Positions 3,534 to 61,263 of a stretch of DNA of 64,000 bases are shown in pieces. Source of the DNA: Kiritimatiellia bacterium (lineage in GTDB: Bacteria > Verrucomicrobiota > Kiritimatiellia > RFP12 > UBA1067); NCBI GenBank assembly GCA_017544725.1, contig JAFYDR010000194.1:8211-72210 (forward strand). The letters are read 5' to 3'. Every line of letters begins with the position of its first letter. The first letter of the stretch is position 1. The notes beneath the pieces are model-generated. The model saw only the letters and a program-made list of their open reading frames with translations, ran no database searches and was not told where the DNA came from. Both the position numbers and the translations under genes were made by a program.

Positions 3534-3557
3534 TTTATGGGATCGACTATTGGGGCG

Positions 3558-7596: not shown

Positions 7597-7702
7597 GGCT
7601 GGGGCTATGCCGCTTATGGCGGCAGTGACGGATGACGAGATACGGCGTGGCTTACGCCTTCAGGCGGTTAGGCATGACAAGCTGGTAAAGCGGGTTAAGC
7701 TA

Positions 7703-7726
7703 GGCAACGAGGACGTTGCCCCTCCC
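7703..7726 (+). repeat. 24-nt palindromic element GGCAACGAGGACGTTGCCCCTCCC. It is embedded in a longer ~50-nt module (AAGCTGGTRAAGCGKGTTAAGCTAGGCAACG..) that is shared with 46146-46191.
   Basis: Exact repeat, read directly. The stem GGCAACG/CGTTGCC has loop AGGA. Confidence 0.75.
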
Positions 7727-7800
7727 AAGGCGGCTGTCGCCAGCCGAGAGGTGGGGAAGGGACATAAAGGACGAAAACGACAAAAGGGACGCCCCGCCCG

Positions 7801-7845
7801 CGCAGCGCACGGGAATATTCATAGGAAATATTTTTCGTTTCGGGC
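7801..7845 (+). repeat. E-module copy (GCCCCGCCCGCGCAGCGCACGGGAATATTCATAGGAAATATTTTT), a variant of the GC-clamp/AAGTTATCCCCATGAA family.
   Basis: It matches copies at 24781(-), 33373(-), 45894(+), 49741(+), 49943(+) and 55215(-). Confidence 0.6.
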
Positions 7846-12627: not shown

Positions 12628-12832
12628 GCTCATCTCTCGTCACTGCCGCCTCTGGCGGCTGGCGGCTTCGCCGCCATTTCATTCGTCATTCCGTCATTCT
12701 TATTTCTTCATTCTTCTCTGCCGCCTTCGGCGGCTCGCCTTTCAGCTTCCCCGCTTCTCAGCTGGCGGCTCCGCCGCCTGTCACTCGTCATTCGTCATTG
12801 CCGCCTTCGGCGGCTGGCGGATCCGCCGCCCG
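12628..12832 (+). repeat. Mosaic repeat block. It contains TCGTCAT direct repeats, UUCG/UCUG-loop GC hairpins (GCCGCCTTCGGCGGC, GCCGCCTCTGGCGGC) and CAGCTGGCGGC units.
   Basis: Modules are shared with 24322-24455, 40681-40840, 46193-46215, 46322-46375, 49838-49925, 50170-50222, 54919-54980 and 57816-57955. Confidence 0.7.
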
Positions 12833-16091: not shown

Positions 16092-16115
16092 GGGAGGGGC
16101 AACGTCCTCATTGCC
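16092..16115 (-). repeat. Copy of the 24-nt palindromic element in reverse orientation (GGGAGGGGCAACGTCCTCATTGCC), sitting between convergent genes.
   Basis: Read directly. It differs by 1 mismatch from the consensus. Its position is consistent with a bidirectional terminator role. Confidence 0.65.
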
Positions 16116-21700: not shown

Positions 21701-21945
21701 CGACGACACGTACCTGTGCAACCCCCTGAATTATCCCGCTAGGTCACATCTCCAAATCTGGGGTGTTGTACTAGCAGTCCGAGGGGCGCATCTGCGTAAT
21801 TCACCTATTCCGTACGCACGAGAGGATTTTGGAAACAACCAGAACAACTTGAAGACAACATTTGAAAGAAGTGCGCGGACCAACCGGTCCGCGCAGTCTC
21901 TCCTTTGCCTGTAACTTGCCGCTATGGAGAGCCGCCGTGTGCTAC

Positions 21946-24455: not shown

Positions 24456-24472
24456 GTGTGTCGCATGTCATC

Positions 24473-24488
24473 GATAGCTATCGATTGC
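24473..24488. repeat. Perfect 16-bp palindrome ATCGATAGCTATCGAT, within a TCGATTGCGATCGA-like module.
   Basis: Self-complementary, read from the sequence. Related CGATTGCGATCGA motifs are at 9990-10010 and 54880-54906. Confidence 0.6.
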
Positions 24489-24565
24489 GATCGAATGCAA
24501 TCGGACGGGGGGGATTTAATTTTGTGGAACTTGAAATCGTGGCGAGTGGAAAAGCCCTGAAAGGG

Positions 24566-24604
24566 CGTTAACTATACAGACGGGGGTGAGCGAAGCGTGA
24601 CCCC
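24566..24604 (+). repeat. Hairpin module CAGACGGGGGTGAGCGAAGCGTGACCCCCG (GGGGGT/ACCCCC stem).
   Basis: A near-identical copy is at 55001-55032. Confidence 0.6.
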
Positions 24605-24780
24605 CGACGGTGTCATAAACATCGACCAAGCCCTGAAGGGGCGGCAGAACAATCTACCGTAGATCATCGAGAGACGCGCCTTCTGTCGCCCTTTCAGGGC
24701 TAGTGTGCTTTTGCTTGATTCCGGGGGCTGTGCTACGCTTGTCCCCGTCTGTGTACTGTCGCCCCTTCGGGGCTTGACGA

Positions 24781-24820
24781 AAGTTATCTCCATGAATATT
24801 TCCGTGAGCAGCGCGGGCGG
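24781..24820 (-). repeat. E-module copy in reverse orientation (AAGTTATCTCCATGAATATTTCCGTGAGCAGCGCGGGCGG). It is preceded by the GCCCCTTCGGGGC UUCG hairpin.
   Basis: It matches the 55215-55258 copy, including the flanking GCCCCTTTGGGGC. Confidence 0.65.
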
Positions 24821-40300: not shown

Positions 40301-40433
40301 ATTCGCCGTTCCCCTGCAATGTCCATCCGTCCGGCTGTTTTCCCTTCCCTTCGCGAAATGCCGAATTCACAAGCAGATTCTGATCCGCAAACGCCATTCC
40401 GGCACACAATACGACTGTCCAATAGATCTTCAT
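37377..40433 (-). CDS. Very large (1018 aa) secreted hypothetical protein with a C-terminal glycoside-hydrolase-like (DUF4091-like) region.
   Basis: Signal peptide MKIYWTVVLCAGMAFA. The aromatic-rich C-terminal third (WYDEPQ, WLWQTWQ, ILIWETVWW) resembles GH-like DUF4091 proteins. The functional call is tentative. Confidence 0.55.
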   Translation of the reverse strand: MKIYWTVVLCAGMAFADQNLLVNSAFREGKGKQPDGWTLQGNGEWSKDDGVLAISGDGKESWRWLSADVPVKPGECYWFSFELLTSGAGGGCVVVGADCVNNDEGFSEGKWSRREFAFCTPDGKEAERIHLGQWTMNGTAFFRNPELYRTTPIHSSVAGLSLGVGEIVEGNDYSFKTQLGKISKNYSRTLAGYTANLNSDRWCFSANKEVVYKFQLPGRKFLSATTKFSCGYYSDGKLLAEFSKDAKEWTVLGEIDKTGSFKFDVPTNACPAEVFFVRMHGAPAGCGLQIHELALDAKIDGEPLARSVGRTKFLRNESEDAKLLVRVDDLGETTPGVNNEISMHVDNNTGVATNLMGLVIFSKPDVASVTNQMPIELPGTGAFDIRIPYVMPGVGLWKMTVELGVSNRFSTAVSVSPFYDDTYGELLPVNRPEFNLWRASSGWKIPRHRNLPKTIAKQLTLRTAANEAEALQLVVTPNRTLQNLKVSVGDLLGVGAKIPASQITILAVGYVPIQKTTDNLGVVADWPDPLLPQTAAGIVAKAGENQPFWIRVKPAKGTPAGIYRGRVTITADGGIRADTVLNVQVFDFDLPDQMTCETSFGFSPWRTFEYQKAKTAEEKKQITEAYLTHLSDHHISPYNPTPLANWSVTWQKDGKPWKGKEDEKDAKEKLNTDACVPIFNWKAWDEAMESAFARWHFNSFVIRVDGLGWGDWSGKGPQAKFLGYLDDEPEYEALWGKYAKQIEAHLKEKGWLEKAYVYWYDEPQRGVYDYVANGMKKLKKHAPGLRRFMTVQVEPEFLGLVNLWCPLTPNLERPDTPKCREAGDQFWWYVCCGPHAPYVTEFIDHPGTEMRLWLWQTWQHNVTGILIWETVWWTSPQAYPEKGHPQNPYLDAMSWVADGRLAPGTKNPWGNGDGRFLYPPVAAADGAQEATVLDEPVDSFRLELLRDGIEDYEYFVMLKKLLAEKKSKLAPRDAQNLEDLLIVPESVSKNMTNFTTDPEPMESHREKLARAIERLRKL

Positions 40434-45893: not shown

Positions 45894-45938
45894 CAGCCCC
45901 TCGCGCCGTGCACGGAAATATTCATGGGGATAACTTTC
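45894..45938 (+). repeat. E-module copy (CAGCCCCTCGCGCCGTGCACGGAAATATTCATGGGGATAACTTTC).
   Basis: Matches the 49741 and 49943 copies. Confidence 0.65.
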
Positions 45939-46145: not shown

Positions 46146-46191
46146 GGCATGATAAGCTGGTGAAGCGTGTTAAGCTAGGCAACGGGGACGT
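46146..46191 (+). repeat. About 50-nt module ending in the 24-nt hairpin element GGCAACGGGGACGTTGCCCCTCCC.
   Basis: GCTGGTGAAGCGTGTTAAGCTAGGCAACGG.. matches 7681-7726. Confidence 0.7.
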
Positions 46192-46261
46192 TGCCCCTCC
46201 CGTTTTCATTCGTCATTGCCGCCACAAGGCTGTGCATCATTCTTTATTCCGAACAAAGTGA

Positions 46262-46285
46262 GGCAACGAGGACGTTGCCCCTCCC
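46262..46285 (+). repeat. 24-nt hairpin element GGCAACGAGGACGTTGCCCCTCCC (a second copy in the same gap).
   Basis: Exact match to the 7703 and 50041 copies. Confidence 0.75.
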
Positions 46286-46321
46286 CATTCTCTGCGGTCT
46301 CATGCGAACCTCTGCGCCTCT

Positions 46322-46375
46322 GCGTGAAATTTCTCTCGTCATTCGTCATTGCTTCGCAAAGCGAAGTTATAGGCC
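46322..46375 (+). repeat. TCTCGTCATTCGTCATTG module plus the GCTTCGCAAAGCGAAG hairpin plus the GTTATAGGCC (D) module.
   Basis: Shares units with 50170-50222, 54919-54945 and 57940-57955. Confidence 0.6.
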
Positions 46376-46437
46376 AAGAACTCTGCTTTTCTTCTTTCCC
46401 GTTTTTTGTTATAATTTTCCTTTCTGGGACGGATGGT

Positions 46438-49400
46438 ATGAATCGTATTTGTTTTCTGGTTTCGTGGATCGTATGCTTGGTGGCAGGGGCGGGAATCTGT
46501 GAAGAGGTTTCCGCTGACTTGGCGTGTCTTGCGGCGAGCAACTGGCTGGATACGGATGCCAGTCCGTTGCCTCATTCTGTATCCCAAAGGGAGATTGCGG
46601 CAGTTCACCCGATTTCCGATGAAACAGGAGAGATCTTGTTTTACGCGCTGGATTTGACCGGTGGCGGTTTTCTCGTTGTGTCGGCGGATACCTCGATTAC
46701 ACCGATTATGGCTTGTTCTGACACTGGCGCATGGGATACCGATGGGGAGAATCCGTTGTGCGTATTCCTCACAGCGGACCTCACATCTCGGCGGGATGCA
46801 ATTCGCCGAAAACAGATTCTTTCTTACGGTATTTGCAGCGAATCGAGCTTGTCCAGCGGCAGAAGTGCGGAAGAGAAATGGGAAGCGTTGTTGCAGACTC
46901 CCGCCGCCGCAATTCGGAAACGTTCGATACCGGAGAGTATGTCGCTTGTCGATATCCGTGTTCCTCCGTTGATCCAGTCGCGCTGGGGACAGAGCAACTG
47001 GCGCGATCCGAACACGCAACAACTCCGTCCGACATTCAACTACTACACGCCGAACCGGTACCTGTGCGGTTGTGTCGCAACTGCGTTTGCACAGGTGATG
47101 CGATATTGGTGTGAACCGAAACGTACGGTCGTCCCTGGCTCTTACTTCTGCTGGGTGGATGGTGTCTTGACGAAAAAGACGATGATTGGAGGTCGGTACG
47201 ATTGGGAAAAGATGCCGCTGACACGAGTGGAATGTACAGACGAGGAACAGCGTGAAGCAATCGGGAAATTATTGTTCGATCTGGGAGTCGCAAGCCGGAT
47301 GCAATGGACGAAACGCGAGTCGATCACCTATTCCCGCAAGGCTGGAATCTCTCTGCGCAACCGTTTCGGGTACGCCTCTGCCTGTATGTTTTACTCTGGA
47401 ATTCGTATGCAGAATCTTGCAGGGGTCTGTCGTGACGCCATCCTTGCCAGTCTCGACGCGGGGATGCCCGTTGTGATCGGTATTCAGCGCGGGGCTGTTG
47501 GTCACGCGGTGGTTGTGGATGGATACGGATACAACGGTAGCGATACGATTTATTGCCACATCAATTTCGGTTATTCGGGAACTTCAGACGCATGGTACAA
47601 CCTCGTCGGGGAAAATGTGACATCGGAGAACTACACGCAAATCTCCGATGTTATTTACAACATCCATCCGTCGCTTGCCGGGGATGTCTTCTCCGGTCGT
47701 GTGCTCAACTCCTTTGGGGAACCAGTCGCGGATGCGGAAGTGCGTCTGGTTCCCCCCTCTGGCGCGGTGATGTCCACGCGCTCCAACGAAAACGGAATCT
47801 ATGCGTTTCACGTGACGAAGACCGGAGACTACACGATCTCCGCCGTCAGTGGAGCGCTGTCGTCGGGCGGACAACGAATTTCCTTTCCCGCCCGTAGCAC
47901 CAACTCGACGTTACAGGAAACAGACACGACGATTGACGCGGGGGGAAGTCCCGGAAGTGTCGCCAATCGATGGGGAATCGATCTGACGTTGCGCGCCTCA
48001 CAGGTCACGTTGCAAAAGGCATTAGGTGCGAGCGGTCTGGTATTCTCCAGCGGCGGAAACGCCGCATGGTCAGGAATTGTTGCCGACACGCGAACGGGAC
48101 GGACCGCCGCGCAGAGTGGTGCCGTCGCCAATAATCAATCCTCTTGGTTGCGTACCACGGTGGTCGGTCCCGGCGTTCTCTCCTTCCGTTGGCGCATTTC
48201 CTCCGAAAAGAAGTACGACAAGTTGACATTCAAGGTGGACAACCAAACGATTGCGACGATTTCGGGTGACACGGAATGGACGACGGTTTCTAGATACATC
48301 CCGCCCGGTGTCCACACGGTACAGTGGACATACGCAAAGGACAAGAGCCTCGGTTTGGAAAAGGATTGCGCGTGGATTGAAAGTCTTGCGTGGAAAGAAA
48401 CGCTTCCTGCGACGCCTGGATCATTCCGGTTCGTGTCCAGGGGAGGCTCCGGAACGGTTTCCGTTTCCGAGAATTCCGGCACACGCTGGCGGGTGACATC
48501 CGCGACCGAGTGGATTGTACCTCAAACAACGGGAGGGACAGGAAGCGGAACGTTTGTGGTCAAAGTGGCGAAAAACGACACGGACACAACGCGAACCGGG
48601 CAACTCCGTGTTGCGGCGACAACAGAACGTGGGGAGAAGGAAACGACGATTTCCATCACGCAGATTCCTGTACCTCAACTTGTCGTCTCCAATACATCCG
48701 TTTCCATATCCGCGAAAAACGGAAGGTATGAAACCACAGTCGAGGCAAATCAATCGTGGTCGGCTTCCGCAGATGTTCCGTGGATCACGTTGGCGAGGAG
48801 TTCGGGGAAAGAGGACGAACATGACCTCGTTTATCAGGTGGAGGCCAATCGGATGCCATCTGTGCGAGAGGGACGGATCACCGTGACGATCGGATGTGCC
48901 TCGGAGACATTGCGTAAAACTGTGGTTGTTCGGCAACGCGGCGCGTCGAAAGCGGATGGATTGTGGCTACCGACGGGTGCGCTCCGTCCAAAGAAAACAA
49001 CCGAATGGCATGGTAAAATTTTCAACGGCGATACAACGATCGCGCTTCTGCAAGTTCGTGCGAAGAAGACTAATGCGAAAGGACTCGTAACGATTTCCGC
49101 GAAGGCTACGCGCTCGGACGGCAAGAAATTTCTCGCGAAGGCGATTTCGGTGAAGGCAACGGACTCGCCTCGCCTCATCCAGTTAACGCTTAAAAAATGG
49201 GGAACAATCGTCCTGTACCTCGGGGCTAATGGCATGGTCGGGACGTTTGGAAACGATTGGGTGGAATCCGCAAAGAGAGGCGGTTCACTCCGCCGTACCC
49301 CTGCCACTTTCACGGCTGGTAGGGTGACGACGCTAAACGGAATTCCTCCGTTGATCGACTGCCTTCCGGATGGCGCGACGATACGAACCAGCGGTACTCG

Positions 49401-49704
49401 CTGGACATTCGAGAAAAACGCCTCGATCAAATACAAGAAGATCAAGGAGAAAGGAAGCTCCGCCATTCGCTACGAGCTACAAGGAATCAATGACCCCTCG
49501 CATCCGAACGTGACTTGCCTCAAGCTGAGCTACCAATCAAAATACGGTACATTCAGCGGGAGCTTCAAACTTTACACCGTGGAGAAGAACCTCCTAAAAC
49601 GTTGGACTTTCCGGGTCACGGGTGTCGTTGCCGACGGCATAGGTTCAGGCGTGGCCACCTGCAAGAACTCCTCCCCCAATAAAATTGCCGTGCGCATCGA
49701 ATAG
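46438..49704 (+). CDS. Large (1088 aa) secreted C10-family (streptopain/SpeB-like) cysteine peptidase with a carboxypeptidase-regulatory-like domain and multiple BACON/Ig-like repeats.
   Basis: Signal peptide MNRICFLVSWIVCLVAGAG. YLCGCVATAFAQVMRYW matches the SpeB catalytic-Cys motif CVATAxAQxMxY. GHAVVVDGYGY is the catalytic His strand. FSGRVLNSFGEPVADAEVRLV is a CarbopepD_reg-like domain. There are repeated ..RVAATT..ITQ and ..RITVTIG.. BACON-like units. Confidence 0.8.
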   Translation: MNRICFLVSWIVCLVAGAGICEEVSADLACLAASNWLDTDASPLPHSVSQREIAAVHPISDETGEILFYALDLTGGGFLVVSADTSITPIMACSDTGAWDTDGENPLCVFLTADLTSRRDAIRRKQILSYGICSESSLSSGRSAEEKWEALLQTPAAAIRKRSIPESMSLVDIRVPPLIQSRWGQSNWRDPNTQQLRPTFNYYTPNRYLCGCVATAFAQVMRYWCEPKRTVVPGSYFCWVDGVLTKKTMIGGRYDWEKMPLTRVECTDEEQREAIGKLLFDLGVASRMQWTKRESITYSRKAGISLRNRFGYASACMFYSGIRMQNLAGVCRDAILASLDAGMPVVIGIQRGAVGHAVVVDGYGYNGSDTIYCHINFGYSGTSDAWYNLVGENVTSENYTQISDVIYNIHPSLAGDVFSGRVLNSFGEPVADAEVRLVPPSGAVMSTRSNENGIYAFHVTKTGDYTISAVSGALSSGGQRISFPARSTNSTLQETDTTIDAGGSPGSVANRWGIDLTLRASQVTLQKALGASGLVFSSGGNAAWSGIVADTRTGRTAAQSGAVANNQSSWLRTTVVGPGVLSFRWRISSEKKYDKLTFKVDNQTIATISGDTEWTTVSRYIPPGVHTVQWTYAKDKSLGLEKDCAWIESLAWKETLPATPGSFRFVSRGGSGTVSVSENSGTRWRVTSATEWIVPQTTGGTGSGTFVVKVAKNDTDTTRTGQLRVAATTERGEKETTISITQIPVPQLVVSNTSVSISAKNGRYETTVEANQSWSASADVPWITLARSSGKEDEHDLVYQVEANRMPSVREGRITVTIGCASETLRKTVVVRQRGASKADGLWLPTGALRPKKTTEWHGKIFNGDTTIALLQVRAKKTNAKGLVTISAKATRSDGKKFLAKAISVKATDSPRLIQLTLKKWGTIVLYLGANGMVGTFGNDWVESAKRGGSLRRTPATFTAGRVTTLNGIPPLIDCLPDGATIRTSGTRWTFEKNASIKYKKIKEKGSSAIRYELQGINDPSHPNVTCLKLSYQSKYGTFSGSFKLYTVEKNLLKRWTFRVTGVVADGIGSGVATCKNSSPNKIAVRIE

Positions 49705-49707
49705 CGG

Positions 49708-49732
49708 TATAACTTCGCGCGGCGAAGTTATA
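49708..49732. terminator. Perfect palindrome TATAACTTCGC-GCG-GCGAAGTTATA four nt after the peptidase stop. It is part of the GAAGTTATAGGCAAG (D) module.
   Basis: Self-complementary, read from the sequence. A D-module with the E-module follows at 49724-49786 and again at 49926-49987. Confidence 0.45.
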
Positions 49733-49740
49733 GGCAAGCG

Positions 49741-49786
49741 CCTCGCCCGCGCCGCGCGCGGGAACGTTCATGGGGAATAACTTTCA
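49741..49786 (+). repeat. E-module copy (CCTCGCCCGCGCCGCGCGCGGGAACGTTCATGGGGAATAACTTTC).
   Basis: There is a tandem second copy at 49943-49987 with 200-bp periodicity. The intervening 49838-49925 block is a TCGTCAT/CTCAGC/GC-hairpin module. Confidence 0.7.
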
Positions 49787-50040
49787 GTTTCGACGACGAG
49801 GACATCGGCGTTACGCAGCGGACGCGACGGAGCGCGTCTCTCCCATCCGTCACTGCAACCTCTGGTTGCTTACTTCTCAGCCTCTCAGCTTCCCCGCTTT
49901 TCAGCAGGGCGGCTTCGCCGCCCTGCGAAGTTATAGGCAAGCGCCCCGCCCGCGCCGCGCGCGGGAACGTTCATAGGAATAACTTTCGACAAGCCCCGAA
50001 GGACTAAACGGTCACGACAAGCGCACCCCTCCCCATTTCA

Positions 50041-50064
50041 GGCAACGAGGACGTTGCCCCTCCC
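50041..50064 (+). repeat. 24-nt hairpin element GGCAACGAGGACGTTGCCCCTCCC.
   Basis: Exact copy. Confidence 0.75.
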
Positions 50065-50330
50065 GTTCGTGGGTAAGTGCCGCTAGGTGGTTAAGTGTCC
50101 CTGCGGGACTAAGGGGTGATGCCCCACTTAGAGCCGAAGGCTCACTTAGGGCGAAGCCCACTTAATTCCATCTCTCGTCACTCGTCATTGCCGCCATCGG
50201 CGGCATCTTCATTCATCATTTTCCTTGCGTGGGGCGTTTATGCCACACTATAATCTTTCCGTTCTTGAGGGCGTGTGCCATTGAGATGATGTGTCGCAAA
50301 AGGGGTTGCAATTGTTACCAAGGTGAGTCT

Positions 50331-52637
50331 ATGAAGATGATGAAACGAATCGCGTTGTCGCTGGTTGCAATGCTATCGATATGGATTGTCGGTTGCATCG
50401 GACCGGGCGGCAACGTTGCGCTAGACACGGCGAAGCCGTTGCGCGTGGCGGTGTTCGTGGGTGACGGCGCGCGTAACATTGGCGTATTCCGTTGGGTCGA
50501 GATCGCGACGATGGCGGAGAACGTCGTCGCTACGCCTGTAGATGGCGCGGCAGTGAGAGCGGGTGCGCTGGATACGATGGACGTCCTTATCATGCCGGGC
50601 GGGAGTGGACACGATGAAGGAGTGAACCTCGGAGCAGATGGGCGCGAACGCGTCAAGTCATTCGTGCGTGGAGGCGGCGGCTATATCGGCACATGCGCTG
50701 GATTCTACCTTGTCACGGAACCGATTCCCACGAATCCGAAGCGCAAGGACTACCTCGGACTTATCCCGTTCAAGGACACGATCGATGGCGGAAACGGCAG
50801 GGCAGAGGTCAATTTCGAGTTCAACGAAAAGGCGGAGAAGCTGGCCGGGATCAAGAAGGGCAAACACAAGATTCAATACAGCCACGGTCCTGTTGCGATC
50901 CGCTCGCAGAAAGCGGTGGAGGGGACTCGAGCAGAGGTGCTTGCGACGTATGCATGTGATTATAACCCGAGTCGTTTTCTGCGACCCTCGAAGGCGGGGC
51001 ATGTCGCTGTTGTCGCCGCTGAGTGCGGGAAGGGGAGAGTGTTCGCGTTCACCTGCCATCCCGAAAGTGATGTCGATGACCACACGTGCATCGAGGGCGC
51101 GTTCCGCTATGTGACGGGCAGGGAGATCCGCTGGCGTTATCCGCAGCGGAAGCGTGGGCAACTCGCCATCGGGTTCTTGTGCGACGACTCGTTCGGGGTT
51201 GAGACCGCACGCCTCGTTCAGCGTCTTCTCCGCGAACACGAGTTTGACATCGTGCCGATGAACACGGGACTCATAAGCGAAGGTGCGCTCCAGCATCTCG
51301 ATGCGGTTCTCGCTCCTGCAAACGAAGGCAAGGCGGATTCCAAGATTGGACTGTACGGTGAGAACGAGGAGCGGACAAAGGCGTTCCTCGCTCGTGGTGG
51401 ACGTGTTGTCGCGTGGGGTAATGCAGCAGAACGAGTGAAGGTTCGCGGATTGGATGGTGCAGTTTGCGTGGCGGATGCGGATGCTGCGCTTGCGAATCTT
51501 CGGGCATTCGCCGCAGAGTCGGTTCTGTTGGACAAGCAGAAGCTTGTTCCTCCCCAAAAAGTTGAAAGCCCTGTGAAAATTGCGGTTTTCGCGGGCGATG
51601 GTTGCGCGATGGGAAACATTCCGCAACTGCTTGAGTTCTCGCCTGAATACATGGTTGACATAGTTGGCGCGGATGGGGTCGCGTCGGGAGTACTCAAGGG
51701 TTACGACGCGATCTACATGCCCGGCGGCTATTCTGCGATTGCCTATCAGACGCTTGGTGAGGGCGGTCGCAAGGCACTCGTCGATTACATCCGTGGAGGC
51801 GGCAAGTACTACGGCGTATGCGGCGGTTCCTTCCTCGTCTCGCAAACGAAGATGACGCCTGGCAAGGCAGGGCAGGTTCCCGGCGACACTCCGTTCCTGA
51901 GCCTTGTTCCCTATAAAAATGACAATCCGCAACATTACCGTGGTAAAGCCCCCGTGCGCATACGTCTGACGGACGAAGGAAAGGCGATCTTTCCCGAATC
52001 CCACACGAATCGCGTGGTGTGGTACGCCGGCGGTCCCGTGTTCGTTGGTGCGAACAAAGTGGATGATTCCGACATCAAGGTGTTCGCGGAATACAACAGC
52101 CATGTTATCAGTACGCTCGACCCCAAATCGACGCCGGACATGATCGGCAAGGCGGCGATTGTAGGCGGACGCGTCGGCAAGGGCAAGCTGTTCGCTCAAT
52201 GCCCGCATCCGGAACGCCACGAGTGTACGTTCGACATGGTGCGTGACGCCTTTAAATGGCTTGCGGGTGCGCGTCCCACGGGAACGCTTCCGACGCGCAT
52301 ACGCGGGGCCAAGTCCGTCTTTGTCAAGATGGGATACAGGCAGGGCATAGATGTCGCCGTTCCGTTCGTCCTCAAGACGCTTCTTCACGATCGACGTTTC
52401 GACTGTCGTATTAGCAATGTCATGGACAACAACGAGCTGGCGCATTCGGATGCCGTCATCCTGTGCCTGTTCGATAAGAACAGTTGGACTCCGCAACTGA
52501 AGGAATTCGCTGCGAATGGAGGTCAGGTCATCTGTGTGGCCGAAACCGAGGACAAGCGGAAGATTGCCGAGAAGTTCGACGGTGCGACCGTTGTCGATTC
52601 CTACAACCATGTAATCGAGGAGATGCTGAAGAAATGA
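50331..52637 (+). CDS. Lipoprotein with two class-I glutamine-amidotransferase-like (GATase1/ThuA/BPL_N-like) domains. Paralog 1.
   Basis: Lipobox LSIWIVGC. Each half has a GxCAG nucleophile-elbow motif (YIGTCAGFYL, YYGVCGGSFL) and an HPE motif (FTCHPESD, QCPHPERHE), the Cys-His-Glu signature of class I GATases. Each domain is followed by a roughly 150-aa Rossmann-like segment. Confidence 0.75.
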   Translation: MKMMKRIALSLVAMLSIWIVGCIGPGGNVALDTAKPLRVAVFVGDGARNIGVFRWVEIATMAENVVATPVDGAAVRAGALDTMDVLIMPGGSGHDEGVNLGADGRERVKSFVRGGGGYIGTCAGFYLVTEPIPTNPKRKDYLGLIPFKDTIDGGNGRAEVNFEFNEKAEKLAGIKKGKHKIQYSHGPVAIRSQKAVEGTRAEVLATYACDYNPSRFLRPSKAGHVAVVAAECGKGRVFAFTCHPESDVDDHTCIEGAFRYVTGREIRWRYPQRKRGQLAIGFLCDDSFGVETARLVQRLLREHEFDIVPMNTGLISEGALQHLDAVLAPANEGKADSKIGLYGENEERTKAFLARGGRVVAWGNAAERVKVRGLDGAVCVADADAALANLRAFAAESVLLDKQKLVPPQKVESPVKIAVFAGDGCAMGNIPQLLEFSPEYMVDIVGADGVASGVLKGYDAIYMPGGYSAIAYQTLGEGGRKALVDYIRGGGKYYGVCGGSFLVSQTKMTPGKAGQVPGDTPFLSLVPYKNDNPQHYRGKAPVRIRLTDEGKAIFPESHTNRVVWYAGGPVFVGANKVDDSDIKVFAEYNSHVISTLDPKSTPDMIGKAAIVGGRVGKGKLFAQCPHPERHECTFDMVRDAFKWLAGARPTGTLPTRIRGAKSVFVKMGYRQGIDVAVPFVLKTLLHDRRFDCRISNVMDNNELAHSDAVILCLFDKNSWTPQLKEFAANGGQVICVAETEDKRKIAEKFDGATVVDSYNHVIEEMLKK

Positions 52638-54859
52638 AAAAAGCTGTCATTGTTGTCGCGATGTTTCCGCTGTTTATTGGAACCGTCGCAACTGGCGTGG
52701 AGAAATCTGTATCGGCGGAAGCAGAGAAGCCGCTACGGATAGCGGTTTACGTGGATAAGGGTGCCCGCAACATGGGCGTGTTCCGCTGGATTGAACTGAC
52801 GACATTGGCTGGAGGCGCGAAGTCCTTGCCGGTGGATGGTGCGGCGATACGGGCAGGTGCGCTGGATACGGCGGACATCCTTGTCATGCCGGGCGGATCG
52901 TCTGTCGATGAGGCAAAGTCGCTCGGGGCAGAGGGACGTGAGAAAATCCGCGCGTTTGTGAAGGGGGGCGGTGGCTACATCGGTACATGCGCGGGGTGTT
53001 GCCTCCTCATGCAACCGTCAAAGGGACATCCGGATATGATCCACATGATCCCGTTCCGGTTCGGTGTGGGCGGAGGGAGGGCGGATCTCTCAATCGCGTT
53101 TAATCGTCGTGCGACGGAACTCGCGGGAATCCGGAAGGGTACGGCGACGATTCGCTATTCGCACGGACCGGTACCGATTCCGTCGCTTCCGGTAAAAGAT
53201 GCGGAAGTGGAGGTCGTGGCGACTTACAACAGCGACATCAACACGACTAGCGGTAAGGATCGTACGTCTATGGCTGGACAAGCTGCCGCCATCGCGGGGA
53301 CTTACGGGAAGGGACGGCTCTTTGTTTTCGCGGTACATCCCGAAAGCGACAAGGCTGATCACCACATTCTGAAAGGCGCGTTCCGTTACGTGTCGGGACG
53401 TTCGCTCGACTGGGATTTCCCGCAACGGAAACGTGGACAACTCACCGTTGGTGTCATGTGCGATGATTCGTTCGGCGTGAGAACCGCACGGCTTCTTCAA
53501 CGGCTGATCACGGATGGTGAATTTGACGTTGTGCCGCTGAACGCGGCGGCGATCGAAGAAGGTGCTCTGCGGCATATCGATGCGATTCTCGCTCCGGGCG
53601 ATGCAGAGGCGGTAGATTTGAGAAAGGGGTTCTACGGCGAAAATGTCCAACGCACGAAGGAGTTTCTTGTGCGTGGCGGACGGGTTTTCGCATGGGGATA
53701 TGCGGCGGATGCGGCGGAAAAGCGTGAAATGGGATTTTCGCGTGTGGCGGACGGCGAGGCTGCGATTGCGGCGTTGCGTACGTTCGTTGCGGAACCGCCG
53801 TCCAAACCGATTCCAGTACCGCAAAAAGTTGCGAAGCCGATTCGCGTGGGCGTGTATCTGGACAAAGGCGGCAGCAACCTCTCGATCGCGCGAGCACTGA
53901 AGCTCTCGCCCGAATACGAAGTGACGTTCTTGAACGCGGCAGACTATGCAAACGGTGGACTGGACGGTCTCGATGTAATCCTCCAGCCTGGCGGTAGCTG
54001 TAAGGCACAGTATGAAATGATGGGACCGAATGGTGTGGAAGCACTTAGGAGATTCGTGCTGGACGGTGGCAAGTACTACGGCGTTTGCGCGGGGGCATTC
54101 ATGGCACTCCAGATTTCGCGTAACGACTGGCCGCGATTGGGGCTTATCCCGTTCAAGGGGGACGATCCCAGCCACTACCGTGGTGGTGCGCCGATCAAGA
54201 TCGCGCTTACGGATGAAGGGAAGAAGGTGTTTGAAGGATCTCCGAAAGAACGTATCGTTCTCTATTTCGGCGGACCTGCGGCCATTCCGGGAACCCCCGT
54301 GGAGGATACGGATGTGAAAGTCCTTGCTCACTATGCCGGACGCATCATCAACGCATGCCAGCCTGATCCTGTCGAAGAGATGGTGGGCAAGGCCGCGTTC
54401 TTGGGTGGCAGGGTCGGGAAGGGAAAGGTGTTTGTTTCCTGTCCGCATCCAGAGACGGAAGAGGCGACTTTCGATCTCGTGAGAAGCGGGATCAAGTTCC
54501 TGACAGGCGTTGCGCCTACACCAGTGTACCTCGACAGAGTGCGCGGTGCGGTGACGATCCGGTATCGGGTGTCGGACAAAAAGTCGGCACAGTTCCAGAT
54601 TGACACACTCATCTGGGACAGGCGCATCGATCTCTGTCCGGGCAAGGACTGGATTGATTTGTCGCACATTGACGCGATTGTGCAGACGGGTGAGGTGACC
54701 GATGCGGACGCGCAGATGCTGAACCGTTTTGTCGGAAAGGGCGGCAGGGTTGTCGCGTTGTGTGATACGGAGGAGAAACGCCAAGCGGCCGCAAAGCTAA
54801 AGGGGACCATCGTGGTGGAAAAATACGCCGACATCATCGACGCGATTGTTCGCAAATAA
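52634..54859 (+). CDS. Lipoprotein with two class-I glutamine-amidotransferase-like domains. Paralog 2; the gene is a tandem duplicate.
   Basis: About 55-65% identical to paralog 1 along its whole length (KPLRIAVYVDKGARNMGVFRWIEL.., GGGYIGTCAGCCL, AVHPESDK, YYGVCAGAFM, SCPHPETEE). Its ATG overlaps the upstream TGA (ATGA). Confidence 0.75.
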   Translation: MKKAVIVVAMFPLFIGTVATGVEKSVSAEAEKPLRIAVYVDKGARNMGVFRWIELTTLAGGAKSLPVDGAAIRAGALDTADILVMPGGSSVDEAKSLGAEGREKIRAFVKGGGGYIGTCAGCCLLMQPSKGHPDMIHMIPFRFGVGGGRADLSIAFNRRATELAGIRKGTATIRYSHGPVPIPSLPVKDAEVEVVATYNSDINTTSGKDRTSMAGQAAAIAGTYGKGRLFVFAVHPESDKADHHILKGAFRYVSGRSLDWDFPQRKRGQLTVGVMCDDSFGVRTARLLQRLITDGEFDVVPLNAAAIEEGALRHIDAILAPGDAEAVDLRKGFYGENVQRTKEFLVRGGRVFAWGYAADAAEKREMGFSRVADGEAAIAALRTFVAEPPSKPIPVPQKVAKPIRVGVYLDKGGSNLSIARALKLSPEYEVTFLNAADYANGGLDGLDVILQPGGSCKAQYEMMGPNGVEALRRFVLDGGKYYGVCAGAFMALQISRNDWPRLGLIPFKGDDPSHYRGGAPIKIALTDEGKKVFEGSPKERIVLYFGGPAAIPGTPVEDTDVKVLAHYAGRIINACQPDPVEEMVGKAAFLGGRVGKGKVFVSCPHPETEEATFDLVRSGIKFLTGVAPTPVYLDRVRGAVTIRYRVSDKKSAQFQIDTLIWDRRIDLCPGKDWIDLSHIDAIVQTGEVTDADAQMLNRFVGKGGRVVALCDTEEKRQAAAKLKGTIVVEKYADIIDAIVRK

Positions 54860-54918
54860 TGCTGGCGATACCTCGTGTCATTCGATCGCAATCGATAGCC
54901 ATCGGTATAGGCGATATG

Positions 54919-55080
54919 CGCTTGCCTATAACTTCGGGCCGCCAGAGGCGGCAGTGACGAGTAACGAATGACGAATAGCCGCATAGCGGCGATACAGAAA
55001 CAGACGGGGGTGAACGAAGTGTAACCCCCGGTAACGCCACCCCATGCGAAATAGCCGCGTAGCGGCGACACAATGTTCGA
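54919..55080 (+). repeat. Mosaic block: D-module in reverse orientation (CTTGCCTATAACTTCG), a GCCGCCAGAGGCGGC hairpin, a GTGACGAGTAACGAATGACGAAT unit, and a CAGACGGGGGTGAACGAAGTGTAACCCCCG hairpin.
   Basis: Modules match 24322-24604, 49724 and 57940. Confidence 0.65.
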
Positions 55081-55214
55081 TGACAAGAGCGTTGTGGCAC
55101 CGATGTCTTCGCAGTCAAAAATTTGTGGCGCCGCTATGCGGCTTGATGTGTTGTGATCCATAATGCGGGGGTTGCACCCCTGCCTATACCTATGTCGCCC
55201 CTTTGGGGCTTCTA

Positions 55215-55258
55215 GAAAGTTATCCCCATGAACACTCCCGTGCGCGGCGCGGGCGGGG
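55215..55258 (-). repeat. E-module copy in reverse orientation (GAAAGTTATCCCCATGAACACTCCCGTGCGCGGCGCGGGCGGGG), preceded by the GCCCCTTTGGGGC hairpin.
   Basis: Matches 24740-24820. Confidence 0.65.
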
Positions 55259-55558
55259 CACTTGCCTCTTTTTCCCTCACGCAAAGTTCACGAAGTCCGC
55301 TAGGTGGTTTGAGATTGCTTGAGATGTGTGTGACACACTCTCTTCTCCTTTACGGACTCTGCGAACTTTGTGTGAGCCATATTCAGGGGCAATTCCCTCA
55401 AACGATTGTCGCGGTAAAGGCAAAGGAGAGACGATGCGCGGACCGGATAGTCCGCACACCTCTTTCAGTTGTTGTAGTCAGGCTGTTCGTGTTGTTCCCA
55501 AAATCTCCCGTGCGCATGAGATGGGTGAATTACGCAGATGCGCCGCTGGAACACGCGT

Positions 55559-55588
55559 CTTGCCGAATGCGCTGGAGAATGCTATACT
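55559..55588 (+). promoter_or_regulatory. Putative sigma70-type promoter TTGCCG-N18-TATACT for proB.
   Basis: The -10 hexamer is 33 nt upstream of the proB ATG, with an AAGG site in between. The region 55520-55545 also carries an AATTACGCAGATGCGCC segment that resembles the 3' part of the AT-rich element (22025-22042). Confidence 0.4.
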
Positions 55589-55621
55589 GATGCACATCCT
55601 TTTGAATGAGCAAGGTAGCAC

Positions 55622-56428
55622 ATGAAAATCGAAGATCGTTATCGTGAGTTTCTGCCGGAGGCCCGGCGTATTGTTGTGAAGGTTGGATCCCGCGTGATCG
55701 AGCAGAAGACGGGGAAGCCTGATGCGGCGTCGTTGAGAAGACTGGTATCCCAGATTTCTAAACTGCATCATCAGGGCTATGAGATCATACTCGTCTCTTC
55801 CGGTGCGGTCGGTGCCGGTATGGACGCGCTGGGACTGAAGACTCGACCTTCGCTCGTAACGGATCAGCAGATGTGCGCGGCGGTCGGTCAGGCGCGTCTG
55901 ATGGCACAGTATCAGGGGCTTTTCGGAAAAGAAGGCATCACTATCGGTCAGCTTTTGTTGACGCACATGGATTTCCAGCATCGTCTTCGCCTCTCGAATG
56001 CGAAACGGACGTTGGAACATTTGATCCGGAATAACGTGATCCCCATTATCAACGAGAACGACGTGGTGGCCGACGAGGAGGTGAAGGCGATTTCCTCTTT
56101 CGGTGACAACGACTACCTGGCCTCGCTGGTGGTGAAGGTGACGCGCGCTGATGTGCTGGTAATCCTCTCTACCGTCGATGGTGTTCTGGATGCGCAGGAG
56201 AAGCGTGTTCCTCTGATTGAGGATTTGAAGGAGGCGTTCCGCCTAGTCAATCCGGCACTCTCGAACGGCGGACTCTCGAAGGGAGGCATGGATTCGAAAC
56301 TGAAGGCGGCGCAAAATGCGGTGAAGGCAGGGTGTTCTACCGTCATCGCGTGTGGGCGGTCGCCGCATGTTCTGACGGATATTCTGGCCGGCAAGGATGT
56401 CGGCACCTTGATTCTCGGCGCATTTTGA
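55622..56428 (+). CDS. proB: Glutamate 5-kinase (short form without a PUA domain).
   Basis: Amino-acid kinase fold with VVKVGSRVI, LVSSGAVGAG and NENDVV. It is directly upstream of proA. Confidence 0.9.
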   Translation: MKIEDRYREFLPEARRIVVKVGSRVIEQKTGKPDAASLRRLVSQISKLHHQGYEIILVSSGAVGAGMDALGLKTRPSLVTDQQMCAAVGQARLMAQYQGLFGKEGITIGQLLLTHMDFQHRLRLSNAKRTLEHLIRNNVIPIINENDVVADEEVKAISSFGDNDYLASLVVKVTRADVLVILSTVDGVLDAQEKRVPLIEDLKEAFRLVNPALSNGGLSKGGMDSKLKAAQNAVKAGCSTVIACGRSPHVLTDILAGKDVGTLILGAF

Positions 56429-57815: not shown

Positions 57816-57955
57816 ACTCGTCATTCGTCATTATGCGAGACATCTCTCTTTTCAGCCTCTCGGCTTTCCCGCTTCTCAGCTGGCGGCTTCGCCGCCTGTC
57901 ATTCGTCACTCTTCACTCGTCACTGCCGCCTCTGGCGGCCCGAAGTTATAGGCAA
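57816..57955 (+). repeat. Mosaic block: CTCGTCATTCGTCAT, CTCTCAGCC/CGCTTCTCAGC, CTGGCGGCTTCGCCGCC, GCCGCCTCTGGCGGC, and the CGAAGTTATAGGCAAG (D) module.
   Basis: Same module set as 12628-12832 and 40681-40760. Confidence 0.7.
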
Positions 57956-57968
57956 GGATGGGGAAACT

Positions 57969-58811: not shown

Positions 58812-59656
58812 TGACTGACTTGGATACGTATTTGAAGACTAGAAAGGAATGGATTGAGCAAACACTCTTCTCCTTGCTCCCCATACCTGAGACACGTCCG
58901 GAAGGATTGGCGGAAGCTATGGCGTATGCGGTACGATCTGGCGGCAAACGACTTCGCCCGATCTTCTGCCTCGCCTCTTCAGAGGTGGCGGGGGGGCGTG
59001 CGGAAGACGCATTGCTCCCCGCATGTGCTATCGAGTGTTTACACACATACACGTTGGTTCATGACGATCTGCCCTGCATGGACAACGATACCTTGCGGCG
59101 GGGGCAACCGACAGTCTGGGCAAAATACGGGGAGACGATGGCGGTTCTAGTCGGCGATGCGTTACAGGCGTTCGCGTTCGATCTCGTTGCCCGCACGGGA
59201 AACGCACGATTGGTGGCGGAACTCGCGCAAGCTGCTGGTCCTGCGGGAGTCATTGCAGGTCAAGTCGAGGACATCCGATTTGCGGGCGGCGCGTCGCGCG
59301 AGCAGGTGGAGTACATCTTCCAGCACAAGACCGCCGACCTCTTCCGATGTGCTTGCCGCATGGGCGCAATCGCCGCAGGTGCTGAAGACTGCGCGGTACA
59401 GGCGGTGACAGAGTTCGCGAATCATTTGGGATTCGCCTTCCAGATTGAAGACGATCTGCTCGACGCGCAACAGGCGAAGGCGGACGACGCGAAGCCCGAA
59501 CTTTCCTGTCTCGACATCTTGACTCCGGAAGAAGCCCGCGAATGGTGTCGGGAAGAGACGGATGCCGCCATCCGCGCACTTGCCGCCCCAGTCCTAACAG
59601 GATCTCGCGAGGCCCTCACTTCGCTGGCTTACCGGCTCGTCAATCGCCGTGTCTAG
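58808..59656 (+). CDS. Polyprenyl synthetase family protein (farnesyl/geranylgeranyl diphosphate synthase-like).
   Basis: First Asp-rich motif LVHDDLPCMDNDTLRRG and second motif FQIEDDLLD. It overlaps the tyrA stop (ATGA). Confidence 0.8.
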   Translation: MMTDLDTYLKTRKEWIEQTLFSLLPIPETRPEGLAEAMAYAVRSGGKRLRPIFCLASSEVAGGRAEDALLPACAIECLHTYTLVHDDLPCMDNDTLRRGQPTVWAKYGETMAVLVGDALQAFAFDLVARTGNARLVAELAQAAGPAGVIAGQVEDIRFAGGASREQVEYIFQHKTADLFRCACRMGAIAAGAEDCAVQAVTEFANHLGFAFQIEDDLLDAQQAKADDAKPELSCLDILTPEEAREWCREETDAAIRALAAPVLTGSREALTSLAYRLVNRRV

Positions 59657-59815
59657 GGACGCTTCGCTATTCTCGTTGCCCACGATACGCGACATGTTTA
59701 CCCAGTTTACCCCGCTTACCCAGCCTAACACGCTTATCCCTCTCACCCCGCCTAACCCGCTTAACAGCTAGGGGGAATAGTCACGGGGTTTTCTCGTCGA
59801 TTTTGTCTCGATTTT

Positions 59816-59833
59816 CCTTTTTTCGAAAAAAGG
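59816..59833. promoter_or_regulatory. Perfect 18-bp palindrome CCTTTTTTCGAAAAAAGG, flanked by TCGATTTTG direct repeats. It lies just upstream of the -35 of the sigma-54 activator gene.
   Basis: Self-complementary, read from the sequence. Its AT-rich composition and its position make it a candidate operator or UP element. Confidence 0.35.
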
Positions 59834-59835
59834 AA

Positions 59836-59865
59836 TTGCGCACCACTGTACACATGCGTTATACT
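59836..59865 (+). promoter_or_regulatory. Putative sigma70-type promoter TTGCGC-N18-TATACT. It predicts a leaderless or near-leaderless transcript starting at about 59872.
   Basis: Same architecture as the hisC and proB upstream regions. The first in-frame ATG downstream of the predicted transcription start is at 59875. Confidence 0.4.
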
Positions 59866-59874
59866 GTGCGCATC

Positions 59875-61263
59875 ATGACAGAAAATAAAACAAGCAATGT
59901 ACAGTCGGGAACTCTCGTGCTCAATGACGGTTCGTCGCAGGACGGCCTGCTTCGGGTTCGCAAAACCAAGCTGCTGGTAATCAGCGGCGCGTTGCAGGGA
60001 CGTGAGTTTATCGTCAATCAAGACACGTTCACGATCGGGTCGAGCGACCACAACGATCTGGTGATCAAGGACTCCACCGTGTCGAAACGGCACTGCGAGA
60101 TTCTGGTGGAGGAGAGCGGATATTTGATCCGCGACCTGAATAGTACCAACGGCACGTTCGTGCAGGGAATCCGTGTTTCCTCCGCGCATCTGGTTCCGGG
60201 CGCGGAGATCCAGCTGGGTAAGTCCCGTATTGTCTTCTGCCCGTTGCAGGATGCCAACGACATTCCGCTTTCCGCTAACGAGTCCTTCGGGAAGATGCTC
60301 GGCAAGTCCGTTCCAATGCGCCGTATCTTCTATCTTGCGGAAACTTATTCGCCGTCGGACGCCACCGTGATGATCACGGGCGAGACGGGCACGGGCAAGG
60401 AGGTGCTGGCGGAGGAAATCCACAAGCATTCCCCTCGCAAGGACAAGCCGTTCATCGTGATTGACTGCGCCGCGATTTCCAAGGAATTGATCGAGTCCGA
60501 GTTGTTCGGTCACGTGAAGGGGGCGTTTACCGGCGCGAACATGGATCGTCAGGGTGCGTTTGAACTGGCGGACGGCGGCACGGTCTTCTTGGACGAGATC
60601 GGCGACCTTTCCCCGGTTCTTCAGCCCAAGCTATTGCGCGTGTTGGAAAAGCGTGAGATCCGTCGCGTTGGGTCGAACACCGTGCGGAAGATCGACGTGC
60701 GTATCATTTCCGCGACGAACCGGAATCTCGCCAACGAGGTCAATGAAGGGAACTTCCGCGAGGATCTGTACTACCGTCTTTCCGTCGTGCATTTGGAGTT
60801 GCCGCCGCTGCGCCGTCGGCGCGAGGACATCCCGCTGTTGGTCAAACGCTTCCTGACGGACATGAAGGGGGCGGATGCGATCGACGAGTGTGCCGACTTC
60901 ACGCGGACGATGGACATCTTAAAACGACACGAGTGGCCGGGGAACGTTCGTGAGCTGCGCAATCTGATCGAATTGGCGTTCTACAGCGAACGGCGGCCTG
61001 TGGATTTGAGCGCGTTCCTGAGTCTATCCTCCCTCCGGACGATGCCGGACGAGAAGGGGGGCGATCAGGAGGGCATCGTGTTCGAGACGGGCAAGCCGTT
61101 CAAGGACGCAAAGAACGAGTTGATCGAGCGATTCGAGCAGGCGTATCTGAATGATCTGCTGGCACGGAACAAACAGAACATCTCCCGCTCCGCACGTGAG
61201 GCAGGGATTGAGCGCGCATATTTGCAGCGCTTAATCCGGAAATACGGGATGCGTGACGAGTAA
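59875..61263 (+). CDS. Sigma-54-dependent transcriptional activator with an N-terminal FHA domain (FHA-AAA+-HTH).
   Basis: FHA motifs (TIGSSDHNDLVIKDSTVSKRHCEI, GSTNGTFV). AAA+ sigma-54 interaction domain with GETGTGKE, the GAFTGA loop, and RED..YYRLSV. C-terminal Fis-type HTH. The upstream ATG at 59854 was rejected because it lies inside the predicted promoter spacer. Confidence 0.8.
   Translation: MTENKTSNVQSGTLVLNDGSSQDGLLRVRKTKLLVISGALQGREFIVNQDTFTIGSSDHNDLVIKDSTVSKRHCEILVEESGYLIRDLNSTNGTFVQGIRVSSAHLVPGAEIQLGKSRIVFCPLQDANDIPLSANESFGKMLGKSVPMRRIFYLAETYSPSDATVMITGETGTGKEVLAEEIHKHSPRKDKPFIVIDCAAISKELIESELFGHVKGAFTGANMDRQGAFELADGGTVFLDEIGDLSPVLQPKLLRVLEKREIRRVGSNTVRKIDVRIISATNRNLANEVNEGNFREDLYYRLSVVHLELPPLRRRREDIPLLVKRFLTDMKGADAIDECADFTRTMDILKRHEWPGNVRELRNLIELAFYSERRPVDLSAFLSLSSLRTMPDEKGGDQEGIVFETGKPFKDAKNELIERFEQAYLNDLLARNKQNISRSAREAGIERAYLQRLIRKYGMRDE

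Follow-up and report, generated by a model that had tools for sequence, protein, structure and literature searches.

Two adjacent open reading frames on the forward strand, here called genes A and B, lie in the 64,000-nucleotide stretch of DNA that was analysed (the window), which comes from an uncultured ruminant-gut Kiritimatiellae bacterium. Gene A (50331..52637, + strand) has a conserved ATG start and encodes a 768-aa lipoprotein precursor; it exactly matches NCBI record MBR4171528.1 (IKR48_07740), which is named "hypothetical protein". Gene B (52634..54859, + strand) also has a conserved ATG start and encodes a 741-aa exported protein (MBR4171529.1, IKR48_07745). A first-pass annotation had given lengths of roughly 770–790 aa, the upper figure being a mechanical reading frame that begins at an upstream TTG and overlaps gene A. 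It had also described an overlap of the two genes, and this is present: the ATGA at 52634-52637 is common to the stop of gene A and the start of gene B, and within the junction (52618..52637, + strand) it follows a Shine-Dalgarno-like GAGGAG after about 10-11 nt. The overlap is conserved in related loci L079-L081. Overlapping stop and start codons together with the GAGGAG imply, on sequence grounds, that the genes are co-transcribed, and make translational coupling likely. Two long minus-strand reading frames (50658-52610 and 53090-54784) run antisense to genes A and B; they were rejected as shadow ORFs in view of the hundreds of homologs, and the low dN/dS, of the genes on the plus strand. 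Both genes are under purifying selection (dN/dS of 0.10 for gene A against its ortholog in L079, and 0.12 for gene B).

The two proteins share a four-domain plan. In protein A, a first class-I glutamine amidotransferase-like (GATase1) domain (aa 35-272; 50433..51146, + strand) carries Cys122, His243 and Glu245, with a PGG oxyanion-type motif at 89-91, and is followed by R1 (aa 273-400; 51147..51530, + strand), which profile comparison (hhalign) identifies as a degenerate half-GATase1 or flavodoxin-like domain with W362-G363 at the nucleophile position. A second GATase1 domain (aa 412-655; 51564..52295, + strand) is recognised both in the AlphaFold2 (AF2) model and as a BPL_N match, with Cys497, His626 and Glu628, and is followed by a second degenerate half-domain found by hhalign, R2 (aa 656-768; 52296..52634, + strand). 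Gene B has the corresponding triads Cys119/His235/Glu237 and Cys485/His605/Glu607. Two GATase1-like repeats per protein had been proposed, and alignment of the two halves of A (26% identity over 361 aa, E 1e-29) bears this out. An alpha/beta segment also follows each catalytic domain as described, although it spans about 110-130 aa instead of about 150. These segments are related to each other (R1 versus R2: hhalign probability 97.8%, E 1e-12) and to the catalytic domains (R1: probability about 90%), so that each protein contains, among its four domains, two copies of the fold in which the nucleophile is absent. Searches with Pfam and NCBIfam profiles found no other domain types in A or B.

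Conservation singles out the putative catalytic residues. In a set of 82 homologs that are only 45-50% identical overall, C122, H243 and E245 never vary. C497, H626 and E628 occur in 79-81 sequences, and W362 and G363 of R1 in 81. In each of the four domains an H-P-E motif, 96-100% conserved, comes after the final core strand, and all four G-x-C-[AG]-G/H-P-E sets that had been reported in A and B are present. Relatives that consist of a single unit, or of a fusion, keep the triad too. The AF2 model (pLDDT 92.4, pTM 0.91) places each cysteine at a nucleophile elbow: strand 117-121, Cys122 and helix 123-127 in the first domain, and strand 492-496, Cys497 and helix 498-502 in the second. The catalytic domains have a genuine class-I GATase fold.

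Both proteins appear to be exported. Gene A begins with a signal peptide and an I-V-G-C lipobox ending at Cys22 (50331..50396, + strand; MKMMKRIALSLVAMLSIWIVGC), which fits the bacterial-lipoprotein pattern of a signal peptide ending in [LVI][ASTVI][GAS]C. Gene B does not fit it: its N-terminus resembles a signal peptide and its first 40 residues contain no cysteine, and the same is true of the N-terminus of its 91%-identical ortholog P0075. The suggestion that both proteins are lipoproteins thus holds for A and fails for B. Export signals run throughout the family. A loose lipobox-like motif occurs in 65 of 82 homologs (a few of these are unlikely to be true lipoboxes), and some members combine a Tat motif with a lipobox. 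Protein A would be lipid-anchored. Protein B would be either soluble or signal-anchored, perhaps in association with A.

The first-pass annotation could not place the pair in a described family and suggested a ThuA- or DJ-1-like amidase or hydrolase function. By profile score, A and B are members of Pfam BPL_N (PF09825)/COG4285, one of the families it had proposed checking: against a gathering threshold of 24.2 bits, A scores 98.5 bits (E 4e-28, three stretches, the strongest at 436-632) and B scores 105 bits (E 4e-30, four stretches). The ThuA profile (PF06283, threshold 33.4 bits) gives 28.1 for A and 24.7 for B, both proteins fall below the DJ-1/PfpI threshold (PF01965, 26.6 bits), and Peptidase S51 (threshold 23.9 bits) gives 11.3 for B and no match for A, with a cysteine where S51 has its serine nucleophile. 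The next-best Pfam matches after BPL_N are the triad GATases GATase_3 and SNO; SNO (cut-off 27) scores 21.3 for A and 32.4 for B, with only about 55 of 188 profile positions matched. The Peptidase_C26 and GATase Pfam models gave no sequence-level match in either protein. Relatives are named "glutamine amidotransferase-like uncharacterized protein" by JGI, and PGAP uses "BPL-N domain-containing protein" for distant relatives with one unit, found in Parabacteroides, Neorhizobium and Deinococcus plasmids. The bacterial BPL_N proteins in the literature lack the BirA ligase domain and are single domains of about 250 aa (PMC3641634). In A and B, by contrast, a catalytic domain and a degenerate half-domain together form the unit, which occurs twice in each chain; they also differ in being exported, with a lipobox in A. 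Our literature search found no functional study of bacterial BPL_N, COG4285 or cd03144 proteins, or of periplasmic GATase-like lipoproteins.

Comparison with better-known members of the fold points to glutaminases. Searching the PDB with a single sequence returned spurious or marginal matches and a profile search was needed; the family profile matched PdxT (E 5e-6), with the family GGgYiGtCaG aligned on GKPMFGTCAG and the family PGGs on PGGES of PdxT. These alignments end before the His-Pro-Glu motif. No conserved family residue lies opposite the PdxT segment ERNAYGRQ, which we take to be the part that binds the glutamine carboxylate, so the substrate may be something other than free L-glutamine. 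PdxT (Pdx2, of the SNO family), the glutaminase subunit of PLP synthase, is a cytoplasmic protein of about 190 aa that works only when docked on PdxS, whereas A and B have no PdxS-like partner and score far below the PdxT cut-off (TIGR03800: 19.5 bits for A and 31.3 for B against 105.55). Gamma-glutamyl hydrolases and peptidases (the C26, GGP1 and PuuD/SpuA type) are single-domain enzymes, unlike A and B, and match the family structurally less well than do PdxT, HisH and PurQ. ThuA-like modules and the middle domain of GH42, both from glycan-active proteins, are not known to carry the Cys-His-Glu triad. Several GATase1-like domains of proteins that are exported or act on glycans have no catalytic role (the GH42 middle domain and the ThuA-like, PelA and Agd3 domains), which counts against catalysis here.

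Gene neighbourhoods are variable and place no constraint on the substrate of A and B. No conserved partner gene was found near family members in about 78 loci. A synthase was likewise missing from the neighbours in about 70 loci and is not fused to A or B, as the first-pass annotation had noted for the pair. On the same strand, the neighbours that recurred most were transporters of small molecules (AbgT 5, YitT 2, SDF 1 and MFS 1 of 54) and L-serine dehydratase (4 of 54). Four loci share an operon in the order family member, L-serine dehydratase, family member, AbgT transporter, and in L002 an SDF symporter gene overlaps the family gene; these associations are real but confined to a small number of related loci.

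The glutaminase domains of class-I GATases are textbook cytoplasmic modules that stay inactive until docked on a synthase. Given the GATase fold, the conserved triad residues, the export signals and the lack of a synthase, an extracytoplasmic hydrolase, as first suggested, is the most reasonable reading, and A and B are probably periplasmic or surface amide hydrolases. More specifically, we favour, at a probability of about 55%, a pair of co-transcribed exported cysteine amidohydrolases of the glutaminase or gamma-glutamyl-amidase type. We infer the catalytic activity and the type of bond attacked as follows. Each polypeptide would contain two independent class-I GATase active sites, each followed by a truncated copy of the fold that has no nucleophile. 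With the His-x-Glu pair activating it, the elbow cysteine would attack a carboxamide in a substrate outside the cytoplasm, at a C-N bond of the glutamine-like or gamma-glutamyl-like kind. This would give a thioester as ammonia or an amine leaves, and water would then free the acid. Because there is no synthase partner or ammonia channel, the net reaction would be hydrolysis and not amide transfer. Physiologically, the enzymes would probably free nutrients at the envelope of a gut bacterium that forages on glycans and proteins, and transporters would take up the products.

A more elaborate version is tentative and, on balance, doubtful: the unit of triad domain and degenerate half-domain would define an unstudied extracytoplasmic amidase family, essentially of gut PVC bacteria (Kiritimatiellae and Lentisphaerae, judged by the named matches), in which A, through its lipid anchor, tethers B, which lacks such an anchor, in an envelope complex with four active sites. 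The complex would liberate glutamate, ammonia or amines from amide-bearing compounds of the host or the diet; these could include gamma-glutamyl conjugates, folyl-polyglutamates, iso-glutamine muropeptides or amidated glycans.

An unlikely alternative is that the Cys-His-Glu machinery cuts peptide or isopeptide bonds (for example in gamma-D-Glu-containing murein peptides, glycopeptides or dipeptides) and so feeds amino-acid uptake. Peptidase genes do adjoin family members (C10 upstream in the window, C69 downstream in a 90%-identical relative), NamZ, annotated as an exo-muramidase, adjoins P0007, and an M14 carboxypeptidase is fused to the family unit in L067 and L068; the four serine dehydratase/AbgT operons and the SDF overlap could be read in the same way. 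These associations occur in a minority of loci, however, and the four operons are probably orthologous and hence not independent. DJ-1/PfpI and S51, the Cys/Ser peptidases of the GATase1 fold, both scored below threshold, and the best structural matches are glutaminases. Quite unlikely, in our view, is a glycan deacylase or esterase whose thiol nucleophile strips N-acyl, O-acyl or amide-linked groups from host or dietary glycans alongside glycoside hydrolases. Family members often lie among CAZyme-type genes (GH109-like, GH31, PL8, GH10/GH43 and F5/8 type C proteins), GH123 is encoded within the window, a GH42-like barrel is part of the L067 and L068 fusions, and the presence of several diverged paralogs in one genome is typical of families that process glycans. 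Against this, no specific CAZyme neighbour recurs across the surveyed loci, Kiritimatiellae genomes are dense in CAZymes anyway, and we know of no triad GATase that acts on sugars. It is very improbable that the GATase1-like domains are non-catalytic modules for binding, scaffolding or oligomerisation: there are precedents (the GH42 middle domain, ThuA-like proteins, the IFT52/GldG N-domain and the N-domain of eukaryotic biotin-protein ligase, the BPL_N namesake, which is not regarded as a working glutaminase; PMC3641634) and the nucleophile is clearly lost in two of four domains per protein. Yet Cys, His and Glu never vary in the first domain and show 96-99% conservation in the second at such low overall identity, and single-unit and fusion relatives keep them as well, which is hard to explain without catalysis; the degenerate domains show what functional loss looks like in this family.

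If the amidohydrolase reading is right, the GATase fold has been repurposed as a free-standing envelope hydrolase, with a full triad, no synthase, export, internal duplication and several paralogs per genome. Should the tethered complex also prove real, glutamine-amidotransferase glutaminase domains would for the first time be seen to form an enzyme system at the surface or in the periplasm of a bacterium. The identity of the substrate could reveal a route of nitrogen or amino-acid scavenging in rumen and hindgut Kiritimatiellae, a lineage that is abundant but uncultured in the ruminant gut and for which our search of the rumen and mucin literature found only community surveys. It would also provide a first function for bacterial BPL_N/COG4285 proteins; until the substrate is identified, the practical significance of A and B is modest.

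The history of the pair differs from the tandem duplication of a whole gene that had been proposed. A and B are 46% identical over their full length (the earlier estimate was 55-65%) and sit in two old subclades, each with orthologs elsewhere, which rules out a recent tandem duplication. The family is small, with about 270 clusters at 50% identity (E <= 1e-30); the named matches noted were all from gut Kiritimatiellae or Lentisphaerae, with several copies per genome.

The pair is flanked by repeat-containing gaps of very nearly the reported 625 and 760 bp. The upstream intergenic region (49705..50330, 626 bp) has short dispersed repeats, including a direct repeat at 49716-49774 and 49919-49977, and the downstream one (54860..55621, 762 bp) also has dispersed repeats, among them an inverted copy at 55200-55267 of 49935-50002 (68 nt, 87%). 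The idea that these gaps bound an accessory island does not survive: pieces of the flanking repeats turn up in at least nine further intergenic regions across the window and so mark no island boundary, GC content at the locus is unremarkable, no DNA match to plasmids was found, and the window contains no tRNA gene that could serve as an island marker. In the 90%-identical relative, nevertheless, the shared part is limited to the two-gene block, and another gene lies downstream. An Rfam search of 49000-56000 found nothing and a promoter scan stayed at background level, while terminator-like hairpins, some of them inside repeats, came to about twice background (12 against 6.0 expected, sd 2.2).

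Genes A and B, an adjacent plus-strand pair, encode proteins that belong by score to Pfam BPL_N (PF09825; COG4285): each matches the family twice, with 98.5 bits for A and 105 bits for B against a cut-off of 24.2, which overturns the first-pass annotation's view that they fit no described family. Weaker Pfam matches (GATase_3, SNO, ThuA, DJ-1/PfpI and S51) all centre on the nucleophile-elbow region, and the only NCBIfam matches (PdxT, CobB and PurQ) are sub-threshold. Fold and nucleophile place both proteins in the class-I GATase superfamily. They differ from amidotransferases, for which a partner synthase is the defining functional feature, in having none, and by curated thresholds they fall outside PdxT, ThuA, DJ-1/PfpI and S51. 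The searchable literature yielded no work on what bacterial BPL_N proteins do. What is new, though not categorically so, is the exported, internally duplicated build, which includes a pair of degenerate half-domains and has expanded in gut PVC bacteria. Homologs back an ATG at 50331 as the start of A (MKMMKRIAL..., 768 aa, ending at 52637) and one at 52634 as the start of B (MKKAVIVV..., 741 aa, ending at 54859), downstream of the mechanical ORF starts at 50229 (GTG) and 52484 (TTG). Antisense ORFs at 50658-52610 (650 aa) and 53090-54784 (564 aa) on the minus strand cover nearly all of A and B; they look like the shadow ORFs of GC-rich coding DNA.

The N-terminal and C-terminal halves of A align over 361 aa at 26% identity (E 1e-29), so A and B are each an internal duplication. 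A confident AlphaFold2 model of A, made from an alignment of 82 sequences (pLDDT 92.4, pTM 0.91), has four alpha/beta domains: a first catalytic GATase1 domain (aa 35-272), a degenerate half-domain R1 (aa 273-400), a second catalytic domain (aa 412-655) and a second half-domain R2 (aa 656-768). The half-domains are the segments that had already been noticed as "Rossmann-like", and profile-profile comparison identifies them: R1 and R2 are homologous to each other (probability 98%) and to the first half of the catalytic domain (about 90%), and are thus decayed half-copies of the same GATase1 fold, in which a conserved W-G holds the position of the nucleophile Cys. In the catalytic domains, C122, H243 and E245 (A numbering) are invariant across 82 homologs whose identity otherwise ranges over 45-92%, and C497, H626 and E628 are kept in 79-81 of the 82. 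The model places C122 between strand 117-121 and helix 123-127 and C497 between strand 492-496 and helix 498-502, each site being, as modelled, a classic nucleophile elbow. A search of the PDB with the family profile found PdxT (E 5e-6), and the alignment pairs GGgYiGtCaG of the family with GKPMFGTCAG, and PGGs with PGGES. Opposite the PdxT segment ERNAYGRQ, which binds the glutamine carboxylate, the family has no conserved residue, which hints at a substrate other than simple free glutamine.

Export is predicted to be a family trait, given the lipobox-like, Tat and signal-like N-termini found across the homologs. The description of the pair as lipoproteins holds for A, which has a lipobox (I-V-G-C22), but not for B, whose hydrophobic, signal-like N-terminus lacks a Cys, as does that of its ortholog at 91% identity (P0075). 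A loose lipobox-like motif is present in 65 of 82 aligned homologs (a few are unlikely to be genuine lipoboxes), and in four (P0002, P0081, P0099 and P0106) a Tat-type SRRMFLK (MTSRRMFLKG...) precedes it, which predicts export in the folded state for some members; most have Sec-type signals. Export signals together with the lack of a synthase predict net hydrolysis as the reaction of A and B. If A and B act like every other enzyme with this kind of triad that has been characterised, the scissile bond is most likely a carboxamide or gamma-glutamyl-type amide, and cleavage would proceed through a thioester. Less likely, rival readings are a peptidase or isopeptidase, a glycan deacylase and a non-catalytic module. 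The last of these is at odds with the near-absolute conservation of two full Cys / His-Pro-Glu sets, as against the decayed sister domains of the same proteins, a pattern that argues for activity of both catalytic domains. It is unusual for a triad glutaminase fold to be exported, and the case is clean and testable.

The ATGA at 52634-52637 is common to the A stop and the B start, with GAGGAG 11 nt upstream. This coupling of one paralog with an anchor to one without, an arrangement kept in a close relative, suggests a possible A-B complex. Both genes are under purifying selection: compared with the orthologous pair at locus L079, dN/dS is 0.10 for A and 0.12 for B, with no indels. Over their full length the two proteins are 46% identical, below the 55-65% first estimated, and the whole-gene tandem duplication proposed for them is not a recent one. 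Among 80 aligned homologs, 22 are clearly nearer A (up to 92%) and 40 are nearer B (mean 62%); the other 18 are as close to one as to the other. A-type genes also occur without a neighbouring B (L007, L009, L010 and L082).

In NCBI, A and B have exact matches labelled "hypothetical protein" in a Kiritimatiellae MAG (MBR4171528.1 / IKR48_07740 and MBR4171529.1 / IKR48_07745), and the locus tag of homolog P0092 (IKR48_12170) places a third paralog in that MAG. Close homologs number more than 200, all named ones from Kiritimatiellae MAGs, and are labelled "glutamine amidotransferase-like uncharacterized protein" by JGI. A scan of species-representative genomes gave 72 loci, often 3-5 per MAG, nearly all in MAGs of Kiritimatiellae, "Verrucomicrobia" or "Lentisphaerae"; the gut of goat, sheep, yak, buffalo or deer is the source of most. 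When 1.84 billion cluster representatives were searched exhaustively with an HMM, 270 proteins passed E <= 1e-30, 1,601 passed E <= 1e-10 and 4,569 passed E <= 1e-3. Among the matches listed, roughly 25-30 are full-length double-unit forms and many others are single units of 360-395 aa (one catalytic domain plus half-domain), the named ones from Lentisphaeria gut MAGs. Fusions also occur: proteins of about 1,360-1,400 aa at L067 (4717-8805) and L068 (3517-7707) join an M14 zinc carboxypeptidase, one triad-bearing unit and a GH42-like TIM barrel, and P0117 joins an N-terminal Exo_endo_phos domain to a family member. GGY[IV]GTCAG and HPE are retained in single-unit and fusion forms. The fusions also include two longer proteins, P0011 (1,132 aa) and P0079 (1,202 aa), with four BPL_N-matching stretches. 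More distant relatives (27% identity), annotated "BPL-N domain-containing protein", lie on Parabacteroides, Neorhizobium and Deinococcus plasmids.

No neighbouring gene is conserved across about 70 family loci. The commonest same-strand adjacent genes encode AbgT transporters (5/54) and L-serine dehydratase (SdaA, 4/54), followed by YitT (2), SDF (1) and MFS (1); at L002 the family gene overlaps at its start with an SDF symporter gene. SdaA always lies within the order family member - SdaA - family member - AbgT, which at L011, L014 (1323-13285), L020 and L022 follows a large PATR-repeat surface protein in a recurrent operon. CAZyme and peptidase genes are frequent near family loci, without specificity.

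The gaps flanking the pair (49705-50330, 626 bp, upstream; 54860-55621, 762 bp, downstream) are mosaics of dispersed 20-130-nt repeats in either orientation, including a 68-nt inverted pair (49935-50002 / 55200-55267) that flanks both genes. They had been read as the borders of an accessory island, but GC content at the pair is ordinary and copies of their pieces turn up between genes in at least nine more places of the window (about 3509-3534, 7702-7827, 12636-12814, 16092-16115, 21785-21910, 24472-24820, 45902-45938, 46177-46285 and 57852-57956), so they look like genome-wide REP/MITE-like elements instead. Some contain hairpin and T-run motifs (e.g., 55251-55267). A 90%-identical relative on three independent metagenome contigs (L079-L081) matches the window over 50215-54857 only, and its downstream gene is a Peptidase_C69 where the window has proB; the two genes are thus kept as a block amid differing surroundings. 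All three contigs begin 170-230 nt before gene A, where the repeats probably broke the assembly. In the window, proB/proA lie on the other side of the pair from a large, exported C10 (streptopain-like) cysteine peptidase (46216-49704, plus strand) directly upstream; fusA, pheS and a 1,018-aa GH123-family glycoside hydrolase (37377-40433, minus strand) lie further upstream, and 59542-61263 (plus strand) encodes a sigma-54 activator whose N-terminal domain is FHA / YscD-like. The C10 peptidase has a Spi-inhibitor prodomain, a CarboxypepD_reg domain and two BACON domains, and its translation probably begins not at the TTG but further downstream, near MNRICFLV.
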